Part shown: positions 13,701 through 18,608 of the stretch, piece after piece
Numbering within the stretch: position 1 is the stretch's first letter
Layout: each line of letters starts with the position of its first letter
Sequence record: PQ368571
DNA length: 64,000 nucleotides
Strand: one strand, 5' to 3'
Source of the DNA: Escherichia phage ELT3
Translations under genes and position numbers: made by a program
Notes under the pieces: generated by a model
What the model was told of the DNA's origin: nothing
Database searches by the model: none
What the model saw: only the letters and a program-made list of their open reading frames with translations

Positions 13701-14535
13701 TACCGATAATCTCTTTTAGACCGGACGTGCCGATTGATTGTTCTTCTGCGTGCTCATGGACTTTAACCGTAACGTGGTTGGTTGCGGTTAATCCGTCAAG
13801 GTCTGTAGTCTGGATCATGTCGCCATTGTTGGCAAACTTAGGAAGCACTAAGGTAATATTACCCAACGAACTACGACGAAATACCTGATCACCATTCTGC
13901 ATTTGAATAGCATCAATCGCTGGCTGTGCGTACACACCGCGTGGCTCTGTTCCTGTCTGATAAACATGCCAACGATTACGAACAAAGATGAAATAGTTCA
14001 TTGCATACGGGGTAGTGCAATACCATTTTCGGTTGTACACATTACCGTTATGGTAAAACTCATGTCCTGTACTCAAGAACGATAATTCGTTAACACCACA
14101 CTTGCCACCGATGTCTTTTACTGTTATAGTGTCTCCCTCTGCTGGTTTAGTTGGCATAGAGAAAGTCAAGTTTGCAAATTGACCATCTGCTGCGATATAA
14201 TCACCAGACTTTAAAGGAGTATCACTGGAAGTTGCTGCAATATAATCCCAACGTGGGTCCGTGCGCAGTGCTTGCCATTTAGTCGGGTCAAAATCACCTG
14301 CTGGCTTTGTGATATCTTCTTTTGCATAATACGGACGGTTTTGATAGATTGTAGTTCCGTATTGATCATAACCGCGAGTTGTGTCATACTGAGTAATACC
14401 ATTATGGTAATTGAAAAATTCAACGTTGACCGCATCCGTTGATGTGTTTTTATCTGCGTATGCTACATTGACGACCTTTTCATTACCAGCGTCAAAGCCA
14501 AATGTGGCCTTGAAATGTTGAGAAAAATCTGCCAT
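10795..14535 (-). CDS. 34: long tail fibre proximal subunit gp34
   Basis: 1246 aa; similarity to T4 gp34 as recalled (e.g. WQALRTDPRW, PKFANNGD, ARVGVIALATQ, repeated TPKKL motifs, C-terminal FIWED); divergent from rnh as in T4. Confidence 0.85.
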   Translation of the reverse strand: MADFSQHFKATFGFDAGNEKVVNVAYADKNTSTDAVNVEFFNYHNGITQYDTTRGYDQYGTTIYQNRPYYAKEDITKPAGDFDPTKWQALRTDPRWDYIAATSSDTPLKSGDYIAADGQFANLTFSMPTKPAEGDTITVKDIGGKCGVNELSFLSTGHEFYHNGNVYNRKWYCTTPYAMNYFIFVRNRWHVYQTGTEPRGVYAQPAIDAIQMQNGDQVFRRSSLGNITLVLPKFANNGDMIQTTDLDGLTATNHVTVKVHEHAEEQSIGTSGLKEIIGKRSGHGVFIFDKPENLWRVWDGDQSVRLKPIIDDTRLQPNSYVAVFGDRDVTLTLPTNVEPGDRIQVSMQYMHGNQNCRIITAAEDTKILMQKNMVQFPKRSEYPFNGTETWKEVSELSFNAASDYVPYLEFSYSEGDDGKKHWLVAHAHPIVERVDPTRKARVGVIALATQTETNKNHEENPSDEVAVTPKMLANKTANETRRGIARIATQAETHQDTGSNFLDDVIVTPKKLNDCVATEARRGVMEIATQHETNEGLDDTRAITPKKLEERRASEDLAGIAEIVQAGGSAAARRGEAGTGIYNINDHVKIVTPQNINEVKATETSRGVGYLATDAEVQGATESTPQDALLITTRTLTKRTATESRTGIAEIATQEETNLGQSDNHIITPKKLHTRRATETLHGLAEIATQPEFDAGRDDARISTPLKIKTFFENAQRLKVDPTQGLNLTGDLWQGIMISGLDATEDTKGVAKVATTQLTDAGQDDTTIITPKKLQGKKATEGKEGIIRVGTQAETVAGALANVAISPKNFKYVVQTEDTWKATEARRGFLKVATQENCFVGDNLQGSTQELGNYQHDGIAVTPKGLNYALANFLPKMATAQNSLKLGNVEAAKWARRDIDQTIESNYTFNKKVNVKGDLECLKSGSFETLFVTKNSTDGPINGHLVLGERGVDGHTGITLHGTTASEGMKNSWSIIVGGTGTAQVVDSDAIAFGKINDGGVVEHYAFAMKHSGDATAYRDFIAGRNLYAKQGGLYIVDQSNPAMTRSPDGMLNIGHGGSVNIKAGHQTLTTEIAGQKYQIVHAGNADEVLNRQFVKNAGDTMVGKLTMDNAPIVSVKHEASAATAPAIGNIGFWNMRVTTQNIKETYPEKKNGTLMQWGTDADGLTQLWSPDGTHKHYIRSGTGGQWTAWGEIYTKQNKPTAQEIGAVVAEGGLMNSMTVRDWIKVGNVKIIANNLTRTVDFIWED

Positions 14536-14563
14536 TATTGGGTCTCCTTTTATAGTATGTTCA

Positions 14564-14571
14564 TATTTATA
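14564..14571 (-). promoter_or_regulatory. T4-type late promoter TATAAATA upstream of gene 34
   Basis: Minus-strand TATAAATA about 29 nt upstream of the ATG at 14535. Confidence 0.6.
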
Positions 14572-14649
14572 AAATGAGGCTTGATAGAAACAAAAGAGGA
14601 TGATATATTATGGTTAAAGTTGATTTGTCAGAAGGTGCAAAATGGGTAG

Positions 14650-14678
14650 TTGACAGAATCCCTGATAAGGATTATAAT
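14650..14678 (+). promoter_or_regulatory. Sigma70-like early promoter (TTGACA-N17-TATAAT) upstream of rnh
   Basis: -35 at 14650-14655, -10 at 14673-14678. Confidence 0.5.
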
Positions 14679-14795
14679 TATTTCCGTGCCGAATTAAACA
14701 ATGCAATTCTGCGAGTTAGAGAAGTACGGGTATGATCGTGACGTATCTAACTCGTTTGGCGAATATGTTGTTGTGAGAGTGGAGAGAACTTAATT

Positions 14796-15743
14796 ATGAC
14801 GTATAACCCGTTTACAAAAACTACCGCTACACTTAATGATTTCTTCGATGATCCAGAAGATAAACTGCCGGAAGGTGTGCATTTGATTGATATGTCACAG
14901 CTTATGATTGCTACTATCTCGCATACCTTTAAACCGGAAGATCCTATTAATGAAGGCATGATTCGTCATCTTATCCTTGACACCATGCGTTATAATATGA
15001 CAAAATTCAAAGAGCAATACCCAATTACGGTACTTGCCTTTGATTCAAGTAAAGGTTACTGGCGACGTGATATCGCACCTTACTATAAACGCAACCGTAA
15101 GGAAAAACGAGACGCAGATCCGCGTGATTGGGAGATGATCTTTGCTGCGATCAATAAGATCACCGAAGAGTTTAAAGAGAACATGCCTTATCACGTTATT
15201 AAGGTTGACAAAGTTGAAGCGGATGATATAATCGCTGTGTTAACTAAAAAGTTTTCTGTAGAAGGTCGCCAGGTGCTAATCAACTCCGGCGATGGTGACT
15301 ACACACAGTTGCACAAATACAAAAATGTGAAACAGTGGGCGCCAGTACAGAAAGCATGGAAGAAATGCAAATATGGTAGCCCTTACAAAGACCTTATGGT
15401 AAAATGTGTTAAGGGTGACGCAAAAGACGGTGTAGCTTCTATCAAGTGCCGTAGTGATTTCATCATCTCTCGACTGGAAGGGGAACGAGCTAAACCAATT
15501 GCAACCAAATGGTTAGAGCAAATTTTCGATGCCGAAGATCCAAAGTCTTTGATGACAGAGGAAGAAGCACGACGCTTTGACGAAAACCGCGAACTTATTG
15601 ATTTTGAATTTATTCCTGATAACATCGAATATGAAATTTTGTTAGCATGGGAGAAATCTAAACCAGCACCACGCGGTAAAATTTATAACTATTTTGTAAC
15701 AAATGCGTTAGTTAAAATGTTGCAGAAAATTGGTGAGTTCTAA
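14796..15743 (+). CDS. rnh: RNase H / 5'-3' flap endonuclease
   Basis: 315 aa; strong similarity to T4 RNase H as recalled (HLILDTMRYN, GYWRRD, YKRNRK, EADDIIAVLTKKFS, GDGDYTQLHKY, PPRGKIYNYF). Confidence 0.9.
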   Translation: MTYNPFTKTTATLNDFFDDPEDKLPEGVHLIDMSQLMIATISHTFKPEDPINEGMIRHLILDTMRYNMTKFKEQYPITVLAFDSSKGYWRRDIAPYYKRNRKEKRDADPRDWEMIFAAINKITEEFKENMPYHVIKVDKVEADDIIAVLTKKFSVEGRQVLINSGDGDYTQLHKYKNVKQWAPVQKAWKKCKYGSPYKDLMVKCVKGDAKDGVASIKCRSDFIISRLEGERAKPIATKWLEQIFDAEDPKSLMTEEEARRFDENRELIDFEFIPDNIEYEILLAWEKSKPAPRGKIYNYFVTNALVKMLQKIGEF

Positions 15744-15753
15744 GGGTTGACAT

Positions 15754-16350
15754 ATGAAAGAACTTGAATTAAAATACTATGCACACTCACAGGAAGGTGT
15801 AGAAACAATCCATGATGTGTGGGTAGCAATGTATGACGGGTACAATCTCGTAGACCGAGATAACATATTAAAACACGAGTTTTATTATGACACCGAAGAC
15901 CATGCACTACGTCGAAAAGGAATTTATGCACGACTTGACGTTTACAGAACATTAGTTATGGTCAAAATGGGAGATAGTGAATCTGGACTGTTCAACCGTG
16001 AGGAAATGACGTTTTCAAAATGGGATGAGTTCGCCCATTTTGTTGATAGTCTAGGGGTGAACTCAGAACATGTCATTCCTCTAATGCAGATAATGACACA
16101 TCGCAAGTCATTGACTCTAGATATGGGTTGTGGTATAGTGGAAATGTGCAAAGACACTTTCTATTATCGACGTTTAGACGAAGGAATGGGCGATGCCCAC
16201 TATGAACTTGAGTTCGAGTTAAAATCAGGTGATGAAAAAGCACTTGACATTATCCGAGAAATGATGCTAGAATATGTGGGTGACGATTTAAGTCCTAGCG
16301 AAATCTCAAAAGCTGAACGTGGTTTTCAATTAATGACGAAAGAGGGTTAA
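15754..16350 (+). CDS. CYTH-like (triphosphate tunnel metalloenzyme fold) protein
   Basis: N-terminal ELELKY matches the CYTH ExExK signature; internal RR pair and C-terminal YELEFEL acidic strand; no counterpart between rnh and dsbA in T4. Confidence 0.4.
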   Translation: MKELELKYYAHSQEGVETIHDVWVAMYDGYNLVDRDNILKHEFYYDTEDHALRRKGIYARLDVYRTLVMVKMGDSESGLFNREEMTFSKWDEFAHFVDSLGVNSEHVIPLMQIMTHRKSLTLDMGCGIVEMCKDTFYYRRLDEGMGDAHYELEFELKSGDEKALDIIREMMLEYVGDDLSPSEISKAERGFQLMTKEG

Positions 16351-16355
16351 ATATT

Positions 16356-16631
16356 ATGACTGAACAGAAAAAAGAAAAAGTAGTATTCGATGAAAATGTA
16401 CACGGAAATACCCTGGCACAACTGATTAAAGAAGCCAGCGATCAGAAAACCATTCAAGAAGCATACGGCGATAAGATCAAAGAGATCAAACAGCGTGCTA
16501 AAGAAGAATTAGGCGTAGATGGTAAAATGTGGGGCATTCTGTTTAAACTGTATCACCAGCAACAGCGCGAAACCTTCGAAGCAGAACGCGATGAAGCGGT
16601 AGAACTCTATGATCGGGTGTTCAATGCTTAA
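16356..16631 (+). CDS. dsbA: double-stranded DNA-binding protein DsbA (late transcription enhancer)
   Basis: 91 aa; similarity to T4 DsbA as recalled (FDENVHG, IKEASD, AKEELGVDGKM, FEAE..E.VELYD.VF); synteny. Confidence 0.8.
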   Translation: MTEQKKEKVVFDENVHGNTLAQLIKEASDQKTIQEAYGDKIKEIKQRAKEELGVDGKMWGILFKLYHQQQRETFEAERDEAVELYDRVFNA

Positions 16632-16878
16632 TGAACATGCGGTAAAAGCCGCGAACAAAACAGCAAACGGTCTTGCAATCGAAAAACTGGTTGTTGAAGA
16701 GGGATTGACTTATCTTGAAGCGACAACGCAGTTTGTAGAGGAAAACTCTATCGAATATGGTCACTATCAGAAGTATATTCCGGTGTCCATTATTGACAAG
16801 ATCACACAAGAATGTATAGTAAATAGAACGCTCAGGAAGGGAGTGATCGACGAACCGACCAACACTCTCGATATTTAA
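16624..16878 (+). CDS. 33: late transcription co-activator gp33 (assigned by synteny; start uncertain, alternative ATG at 16609)
   Basis: Small ORF between dsbA and gene 59, where T4 has gene 33. Confidence 0.45.
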   Translation: MLNEHAVKAANKTANGLAIEKLVVEEGLTYLEATTQFVEENSIEYGHYQKYIPVSIIDKITQECIVNRTLRKGVIDEPTNTLDI

Positions 16879-16887
16879 GGGGTATGT

Positions 16888-17568
16888 ATGATCAGAAACC
16901 GTCTTCCTCCAGATCCAGATATGCGAATTAATGCTAAATCTGTGTATATGTTATATTGCATGATGAAAGCTCATATGAACGGGCGTTATGATTGCGTAAA
17001 ATACAATTGGAGGATGCGGTTATCTGATGCCGCATTCAATAAACGCAGAGATAAGTATTATTTCGCAAAATTAGCGGAAAAGTACAATCTAAGAGAATTA
17101 TACTTCCTATTCCTAAGCAATCTGGTAGCCAATACCGATGCATGGGTAGGTGAAATCACTGATGTTGACGCATACGGATTTTATATGGAATACATAGGAA
17201 AGATAACCGATGCAGCAACAAGATTTGACGATGACATTAAAAGTCTGGTATACTTCTCAGAGAAACGCGGGGTTACTCTTAAAGAGCTAATTACATACAA
17301 TCCCGCAACCGAAACTAGCGGTATCTTTAAACTACTGCAAAATCGGATTATATCGTTTGAGTCGTTTATGTTGTTAGATAGCTTTCTAAATATAATCGAC
17401 GAACACGACAAGGTAGCCAAAGACTTGATTTGGCAAACTTATAGTGTTAAAATGAAGGCGTACAAGAAACTACTTGTTATTGACGCCGCAAAAGCAAGAG
17501 CATTATTTGTTAAAGTAGTTAAAGAGTGTAAAGAAATATCTCAATTAAAAGCCGAAACAAATAGTTGA
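16888..17568 (+). CDS. 59: helicase loader gp59
   Basis: 226 aa; similarity to T4 gp59 as recalled (KSVY.LY.M.K.HMNG.YD..KYNW.MR.SDAA..KRRDKY, SNLVAN.DAW, ISFE.F.LLDSFLNIID.HD). Confidence 0.85.
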   Translation: MIRNRLPPDPDMRINAKSVYMLYCMMKAHMNGRYDCVKYNWRMRLSDAAFNKRRDKYYFAKLAEKYNLRELYFLFLSNLVANTDAWVGEITDVDAYGFYMEYIGKITDAATRFDDDIKSLVYFSEKRGVTLKELITYNPATETSGIFKLLQNRIISFESFMLLDSFLNIIDEHDKVAKDLIWQTYSVKMKAYKKLLVIDAAKARALFVKVVKECKEISQLKAETNS

Positions 17569-17592
17569 CAAGTAAATTTAAATCTGTATAAT
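17565..17592 (+). promoter_or_regulatory. Sigma70-like promoter (TTGACA-N16-TATAAT) upstream of gene 32
   Basis: -35 at 17565-17570, -10 at 17587-17592. Confidence 0.5.
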
Positions 17593-17633
17593 AATCTAGA
17601 AAATTAATAGTTAATGTATAAAGAGGTATAATT

Positions 17634-18608
17634 ATGAACATGTTTCGTCGTCAAGATTCTTCCAAACTGCAAGCTCAACTGGCCGCACTGAAAGGTGGCA
17701 ACGGTTTCTCCAAAGAAGATCCGAAAGAGTGGAAGATTAAGACTGATGCAGCAGGTAACGGTGAAGCCCTGATTCGCTTCCTGCCGTCTAAGACAGAAGA
17801 CGGTCTGCCGATTGTGAAACTGGTAAACCATTCCTTCAAAGTTAATGGCAAATGGTATTGGGAAAACTGCTCCAGCACCCACGGTGATTTTGATTCTTGC
17901 CCTGTGTGCAAATATATTAACGAAAAAGACCTGTACAATACCGATAAAACCGAATGGCAACTGATTAAGCGTAAAGCCTCTTACTACGCAAATATTCTGG
18001 TACTGAAAGATCCTCAAGCACCAGAAAATGAAGGTAAGGTATTCAAATTCCGCTTCGGTCAGAAAATTTATGATAAGATCGTTGCAATGGTGAACGTGAA
18101 TACCGACATGGGCGAAGTTCCGGTCGATGTAACTTGTGTGTTCTCCGGTGCTAACTTCCTCCTGAAAGCTAAGAAGGTTGATAAACACCAGAACTATGAT
18201 GATTCTCGTTTCATGCAGCAATCACAGCTTCCGAAAATTGAAGACGAAGCATATCAGAAATATCTGATGGAAAACATGGTTGACCTGAGTGAGATTGTAG
18301 CGCCTAGCCAGTTTAAACCGTTCGATGAACTGGAAACCAAATTTAAGAAAACTATGGGCGTTTCTATGGTAGCTGGTGCTGCGGCTTCCAGTGCTGCGGC
18401 AGCGATTAACAGCCAGCTTGACGATTTTGACGCACAGATGAATGCATTCGATGCTGGTATTAACGCAGCTAGCACTGTAGTTGGTATTAACGCAGCTAGC
18501 ACGGCGTTAGATTCTTCCGCTGATGACCTGATGGCATCGCTGGATCTGGGTGGCGGTACTTCCTCCGCTTCTGATCTGGATGATCTGGACTCTCTGTTAG
18601 CGATGTAA
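17634..18608 (+). CDS. 32: single-stranded DNA-binding protein gp32
   Basis: 324 aa; strong similarity to T4 gp32 as recalled ([52 protein letters not shown], acidic C-terminal tail). Confidence 0.92.

Follow-up and report, generated by a model that had tools for sequence, protein, structure and literature searches.

What occupies the slot between the genes rnh and dsbA of Escherichia phage ELT3, and what might it do for the phage? In the 64,000-nucleotide stretch of ELT3 DNA analyzed here (sequence record PQ368571; hereafter the window), a 198-amino-acid (aa) open reading frame (ORF) with an ATG start lies between these genes at 15754..16350 on the + strand, and its protein begins MKELELKYY. 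In phage T4, dsbA (149509-149778) and rnh (149787-150704) are separated by 8 nt and the slot is empty, as it is in T2. An initial annotation, made from the sequence alone, had pointed out both the ORF and the missing T4 counterpart; its coordinates proved exact, the 8-nt gap was found in T4, and both neighbors were confirmed with Pfam. The explanation that we prefer, at a probability of about three in four, is that an accessory gene of Krischvirus (RB49-like) phages encodes here a CYTH tunnel phosphohydrolase of the type represented by Escherichia coli YgiF.

Profile and structure comparisons carry the family assignment. The protein scored 26.1 bits against the Pfam CYTH model (PF01928; gathering score 23.2, E=8.9e-6), with residues 1-190 aligned to positions 1-178 of the 179 in the model. 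A single-sequence phmmer search of the PDB returned chance-level matches only (UGPase, TriTu). An 18-sequence alignment of the protein's family (A1) was used as a search profile and as AlphaFold2 input. As a profile it matched one sequence in the PDB, the E. coli inorganic triphosphatase YgiF (E=0.0045, full-length alignment). The resulting AlphaFold2 model (predicted local distance difference test, pLDDT, 89.6; predicted template modeling score, pTM, 0.84) contains eight long β-strands with helices between them and ends in a C-terminal helix (186-195), and the strands are predicted to form the eight-stranded antiparallel β-tunnel that marks the CYTH superfamily. When this model was compared with the PDB using Foldseek, YgiF (5a60) ranked first (E=2.2e-11, template modeling (TM) score 0.75, 22% identity), and the 45 matches at E<=1e-3 were essentially all triphosphate-tunnel proteins, including ThTPase, AtTTM3, SaTTM, CyaB, Vtc4, capping-enzyme triphosphatases and the fold-related Med18/20. 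The initial annotation had proposed a CYTH-like protein and held that a prediction lacking this fold would speak against it. The fold was modeled and has a structural match in YgiF, and the proposal is borne out by the Pfam match, by the predicted eight-stranded tunnel with its plug helix, and by the top rank of YgiF in two independent methods. Sequence and model together identify the predicted product as a stand-alone CYTH protein, or triphosphate tunnel metalloenzyme (TTM), of the YgiF type and without a CHAD domain.

The conserved residues are those expected of such a tunnel. Invariant throughout A1 are E3, E5, K7, K40, Y44, D46, R60, D62, K71, R82, E84, R117, D123, C132, D134, E151, E153, E155, K157, S185, K186 and R189, while E130 is nearly invariant, with one Asp among the 18. 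A wider comparison was made with 146 more distant CYTH homologues, obtained by searching 1.84 billion representatives with a profile and aligned to the family hidden Markov model (HMM) with hmmalign. The ExExK motif at codons 3-7 (15760..15774, + strand) has E3, E5 and K7 in 18/18 sequences of A1, and these columns read E/E/K in 57-60 of the 57-60 outgroup homologues aligned there; the motif is also kept in the outgroups P0044 and P0045. The β8 acidic strand YELEFELK (codons 151-157 with E151, E153, E155 and K157; 16204..16224, + strand) shows the same constancy, with Glu at position 153 in 144/145 homologues and at position 155 in 145/145. Between these two motifs the homologues carry Tyr at position 44 (143/144), Asp at 46 (144/144), Arg at 60 (143/144), 82 (139/144) and 117 (141/145), and Glu at 84 (140/144). 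The C-terminal stretch with the plug helix (16306..16338, + strand; helix 186-195 in the model) contains K186, which is Lys in 144/144 homologues, together with S185 (Ser in 130/144) and R189 (Arg in 130/143). Altogether, E151, E153, E155, R60, K71, R82, E84, R117, E130, D134 and K186 match the majority residue of the 146 homologues. Of the motifs listed in the initial annotation, ExExK and the acidic strand YELEFEL are thus invariant in the 18 sequences; the RR pair (R53 R54) did not hold up, as its position reads RR, RK, RQ, CQ, HK or YN and does not belong to the tunnel arginines.

Conservation also follows the predicted strands. In seven of eight barrel strands, the better-conserved residue parity is the tunnel-facing, charged one (for example 1.00 vs 0.88, 0.93 vs 0.72, 0.76 vs 0.47 and 0.93 vs 0.59), and the helices are less conserved than the strands. 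This periodicity, as distinct from coordinates, fits a tunnel lining that is fixed and an outer surface that is variable. In YgiF, metal site 2 is formed by Glu-4, Glu-6 and Glu-162 and activates the attacking water, site 1 is Glu-160, and Arg-56 is catalytic (Martinez et al. 2015). By homology, E3, E5 and E155 would correspond to Glu-4, Glu-6 and Glu-162, E153 to Glu-160, R60 to the catalytic Arg-56, and K71 to Lys-69. Accepting these equivalences, a complex of triphosphate with Mg2+ or Mn2+ would bind inside the eight-stranded β-tunnel, where the phosphates would be held by R60, K7, K71, R82, R117 and K186, and one tunnel end would be plugged by the C-terminal helix. E153 would complete metal site 1, and E3, E5 and E155 would hold metal 2, which would activate a water for attack on the terminal phosphate. 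The expected products are a diphosphate compound and inorganic phosphate (Pi), which would make the protein a phosphohydrolase and not a cyclase.

Comparison with characterized proteins places the phage protein nearest to YgiF, with several differences. Counterparts of the metal ligands, Arg-56 and Lys-69 of the YgiF tunnel domain (residues 1-200; PDB 5a60/5a61) are all present. However, YgiF has 433 aa and a CHAD domain, whereas the phage protein ends right after the plug helix and has no CHAD match; a more distant homologue (P0050) does have a CHAD domain. Furthermore, YgiF has Leu and Asn at the positions of Lys40, an extra residue that is invariant in the phage family, and Glu42. Identity is 12-20% to the stand-alone bacterial and archaeal TTM triphosphatases (NeuTTM, CthTTM, SaTTM, BH2851) and 13-16% to mammalian ThTPase (PDB 3bhd/5a64). 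Recent capture of the host ygiF was rejected as an origin of the gene, given the identity of ~22-23% and the lack of a CHAD domain.

The most unusual feature of the predicted active site is the β3 motif Y58-A-R60-L-D62 (codons 58-62; 15925..15939, + strand), which was aligned to the family pattern [A/S/G]-x-R-x-R in a register that rests on sequence alignment and not on superposed coordinates. YgiF has G-x-R-x-R where the phage protein has Y-x-R-x-D. An aromatic residue, here Tyr, occupies position 58 in 4/144 homologues; position 62 is Arg in 114/144 and Asp in 9/144, and in the phage family it is invariantly Asp. In ThTPases, the first position of this motif carries Trp or Tyr, which stacks the organic part (thiazole ring) of the substrate (Vogt et al. 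2021). In the favored register, Y58 and R60 would align with the first two named residues of the ThTPase motif W/Y-x-R-x-R, and Asp62 stands in place of the final Arg. That Arg corresponds to Arg-54 of AtTTM3; catalysis is strongly inhibited by mutation of the catalytic Arg but not by mutation of Arg-54 (Martinez et al. 2015). We also considered that the catalytic Arg might have been replaced by Tyr58, which lies opposite Arg-56 of YgiF in the A1-profile alignment, and rejected this because R60 is favored by the 146-homologue alignment and by its spacing from the YYDT anchor. A small organic (nucleoside-type) triphosphate and inorganic triphosphate would be the likeliest substrates: analogy with YgiF makes the latter the default, and Tyr58 hints at the former.

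Krischvirus phages carry this ORF as a genuine accessory gene. From rnh to gp33, the window matches 58 phage records at 90-98% identity. All of them are Krischvirus coliphages, the best match being Shigella phage JK32 (97.9%), and the CYTH ORF is present at the same position in 58/58 of these records. Its retention in 58 related records, the purifying selection described below and a score above the Pfam CYTH cutoff make it more than a chance ORF. It is the orthologue of RB49ORF244c (AAL87844.1); the RB49 protein is 83.8% identical in aa sequence, and identity reaches 98% with JK32. Brandy, JSE, Phi1 and ECD7 are among the other Krischvirus phages with an orthologue. The phage clade is isolated: the family profile detected 3 representatives at E<1e-30 and 6 at E<1e-10 among the 1.84 billion searched. 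In every relative found, the CYTH gene is followed immediately by dsbA-gp33 and, where the contig reaches that far, preceded immediately by rnh. Three loci illustrate this: one has a CYTH protein 50% identical to that in the window, with rnh, dsbA and gp33 at 80-81% (L006); in the second the CYTH protein has 40% identity and dsbA and gp33 76-79% (L013), and in the third the corresponding values are 34% and 67-76% (L014). Since the linkage between CYTH and dsbA is kept down to 34% CYTH identity, it must be old. These values also demonstrate that the CYTH protein evolves far faster than its neighbors (34-60% vs 67-100% identity for rnh, dsbA and gp33).

The divergence is concentrated in a hypervariable core cassette at codons 12-148 (15787..16197, + strand). 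Among the window, RB49 and Skers, the genes rnh, dsbA and gp33 as well as the first ~35 nt and last ~150 nt of the CYTH gene are 95-100% identical, whereas DNA identity of the core in the window is 73-87% to RB49 and 48-65% to Skers. Between allele classes, nonsynonymous divergence (dN) of the core is 0.52-0.59 and synonymous divergence (dS) is saturated, while the flanks among genomes with a Krischvirus backbone have dS 0.02-0.36 and dN <=0.04. The ratio of the two (ω) is 0.2-0.5 wherever it can be measured, indicating purifying selection. Clustering of 45 proteins gave four deep core classes on Krischvirus backbones (39-60% identical in the core, 86-98% in the C-terminal third) and three further classes in remoter lineages; the core sub-allele of the window is common, at an identity of at least 96%, to 5/58 records. 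Across all alleles, the tunnel-lining residues are constant. That positive selection made the core variable is not supported: with ω at 0.2-0.5 and dS saturated, the alleles are of old standing and not in rapid adaptation. From these sequence comparisons, we infer that recombination carried old alleles of the core into genomes that are nearly identical and left the catalytic tunnel intact, a pattern that corresponds neither to decay nor to rapid positive selection. In the 3' part of rnh, a short patch at 15576-15665 forms another mosaic segment of smaller size, with 67-77% DNA identity to both RB49 and Skers against 93-100% in the rest of the gene.

The family affinity is correct, but it has been on record since 2003/2006, so the novelty implied by the initial annotation is not borne out. 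The GenBank record of RB49ORF244c (2003) carries the note 'similar to P45267, P30871, HI1598, ygiF', and a table entry of Nolan et al. 2006 (Virol J, PMC1524935) reads 'CYTH domain, E=0.0026' for the same ORF. Nevertheless, the orthologues are mostly labeled hypothetical protein, with a few records of 'adenylate cyclase' (4 phage records) or 'inorganic triphosphatase', and the corresponding PHROGs family (14893) is listed there with function unknown. Precomputed Pfam results are inconsistent across the protein clusters P0001-P0043, about one third of which, including the cluster closest to the window, have no CYTH match. The family sits at the Pfam threshold, which probably explains the prevailing label. 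The points that are new are the YxRxD β3 motif, the mosaic of hypervariable core and invariant tunnel, and the motif-based reassignment given below. The main value of the identification itself lies in tidying the annotation of an already annotated gene; the way the gene has evolved could prove of greater consequence.

Several observations weigh against a YgiF-type phosphohydrolase. The Pfam margin is only 3 bits, several family members have no precomputed Pfam match, and NCBIfam gave no match even at E<=10. The geometry of the tunnel side chains is derived from strand periodicity only. Because Y58 and D62 are rare among the homologues, the substrate and possibly the kinetics may differ from those of YgiF. 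In the literature on phage CYTH proteins, Krischvirus triphosphatases and ORF244c, the 2006 table was the only entry found, with no functional study. Finally, phage vB_EcoM_G2494 (L015; MK327935.1, 601-1196) has a 1-nt deletion at nt 175 of the CYTH gene, which splits it into two annotated ORFs. This is the sole disrupted copy among the 58 records; unless the deletion is a sequencing error, phage in culture can do without the gene.

Destroying a signal is chemically possible, and one alternative is that the gene encodes a counter-defense or host-manipulation enzyme that hydrolyzes a triphosphate-bearing host signal and thereby blunts an abortive-infection or stress response. Candidate signals would be deoxyinosine triphosphate (dITP; Kongming), p3diT-type 5'-triphosphorylated dinucleotides, pppGpp-type alarmones, and thiamine or adenosine-thiamine triphosphate; triphosphate-bearing immune signals do exist (dITP, p3diT). 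Four deep allele classes with an invariant tunnel, in backbones that are 95-100% identical, are typical of host-interaction genes. The same role would suit an accessory gene that is missing from T4 and T2 and evolves far faster than rnh, dsbA and gp33, and a Tyr58 located at the position that in ThTPases stacks the substrate's organic moiety. We nevertheless regard this role as unlikely. PADLOC gave no match even at E<=10, no link between CYTH proteins and phage counter-defense was found in the literature, and the published anti-Kongming factor is a deoxynucleoside monophosphate (dNMP) phosphatase, not a triphosphatase. Similarly doubtful is the related proposal that the deep allele classes around an invariant tunnel arose in an arms race, fought against some host protein able to sense or inhibit the enzyme, as ω is <1 throughout and the mosaic could come from recombination with diverged lineages. 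If true, the counter-defense role would make this the first CYTH-family anti-signaling enzyme in a phage. An invariant tunnel with ancient, shuffling surface alleles, always beside dsbA and missing from T4, is the signature expected of a host-interaction gene, and the gene may represent a new class of phage anti-signaling enzyme or a mundane scavenger of inorganic triphosphate (PPPi).

A position next to rnh, on the same strand, might instead point to an RNA 5'-triphosphatase with Cet1-like chemistry, which would act on triphosphorylated RNA (pppRNA) ends, for example those of primers that primase makes and the neighboring RNase H removes, or of host or phage transcripts, and alter their stability. 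This role is improbable. In the hyperplastic slots of T4-like phages, adjacency says little about whether genes share a function. RNA as a substrate is disfavored by the plug helix and by the ranking of the fold comparisons, and no match to the Pfam mRNA_triPase model was obtained at E<=1, so that the protein is not Cet1-like by this measure.

The initial annotation had also allowed that the protein might produce a nucleotide signal, as a class IV (CyaB-like) adenylate or other nucleotidyl cyclase making cyclic AMP (cAMP) or another cyclic nucleotide during infection. The Pfam family and the fold are indeed common to CyaB (PDB 2fjt, 3n0y) and the phage protein, and four phage records are annotated 'adenylate cyclase'. 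Three motifs separate class IV cyclases from other CYTH activities: true cyclases have HFxxxxExExK, replace the central β3 Arg by a small neutral residue, and replace the second Glu of the β8 ExE by Ala (Vogt et al. 2021). Unlike CyaB, the phage protein has none of the three. The HF motif is absent, with ExExK starting at residue 3 (M-K-E-L-E-L-K) and the frame closed upstream; the central Arg is kept as an invariant R60, although an alternative register, based on alignment to YgiF alone, would place Tyr58 there; and the second Glu is kept as E155, which is Glu throughout the family. A cyclase is thus very improbable, and because all three criteria fail the 'adenylate cyclase' labels are unsupported. 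On these motifs, the favored and best-supported chemistry is cleavage of the terminal phosphate by a two-metal phosphohydrolase. We argue that the cyclase label in some Krischvirus records is wrong and that 'CYTH/TTM phosphohydrolase, substrate unknown' is the defensible name. Least probable of all is an inert CYTH fold that serves as a triphosphate binder or sponge, or a decaying gene without function: the marginal Pfam score, the fast divergence, the frameshift in one isolate and the replacement of the second tunnel Arg by Asp could be read in this way, but all metal- and phosphate-binding residues are invariant across alleles that are 34-60% identical, ω is 0.2-0.5, and the gene is kept in 58/58 genomes and at the same locus in remoter lineages.

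The CYTH gene may be expressed as part of a tightly spaced, same-strand replication and late-transcription block, rnh-X-dsbA-33-59-32. Upstream lies rnh, encoding an RNase H / 5'-3' exonuclease (14796..15743, + strand; PF09293 2.6e-37, PF02739 6e-18). Its stop codon at 15741-15743 is followed by a 10-nt spacer before the CYTH ATG, and a putative Shine-Dalgarno sequence, AAGGG (15742..15746, + strand), was read 7 nt 5' of that ATG. An in-frame TGA at 15748-15750 closes the reading frame upstream, so an N-terminal extension is impossible. On the 3' side, dsbA (16356..16631, + strand; PF11126 5.4e-22) starts 5 nt past the CYTH stop codon, and a candidate Shine-Dalgarno sequence for it, AGAGGG (16341..16346, + strand), lies within the last CYTH codons. 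The genes that follow the CYTH gene, dsbA, gp33, gp59 and gp32, all have strong Pfam matches; gene 34 is located upstream of the block, on the opposite strand.

A consensus scan for σ70-like promoters gave 24 matches on the + strand of 14400-17700, compared with 11.0 ± 3.4 in shuffled sequence. Matches of 12/12 were found on this strand at 14650-14678, at 15205-15232 (inside rnh) and at 17565-17592 (before gene 32). The -10 element of a site at 15747-15775 (+ strand), with 11/12 matches, falls inside the CYTH ORF. Another 11/12 match, TTGACA-18-TAGAAT with TG (16244..16273, + strand), is located in the last third of the CYTH gene, the conserved 3' part, and, as a consensus match only, could drive dsbA and 33. 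RB49 presumably lacks middle-mode transcription, and many internal early-type promoters would fit this. A T4-type late promoter consensus, TATAAATA, is located on the - strand at 14564-14571, just upstream of gene 34, which encodes the proximal long tail fiber subunit.

Two further differences between the window and related phages were observed in this region. Compared with RB49, a small ORF between gene 34 and rnh (14610-14795), the orthologue of RB49ORF246c, lacks 2 bp near 14719. The resulting frameshift cuts the ORF to 41 aa, compared with 61 aa in RB49 and metagenomic relatives, which makes it either a pseudogene in ELT3 or a sequencing error. The junction between gp59 and gp32 is an empty 65-nt spacer in the window (17569-17633), whereas it holds an HNH homing endonuclease in Skers (L002, 4802-5398) and the GIY-YIG endonuclease SegG in T4 (L016, 2910-3542), and is thus a recurrent landing site for different homing endonucleases.

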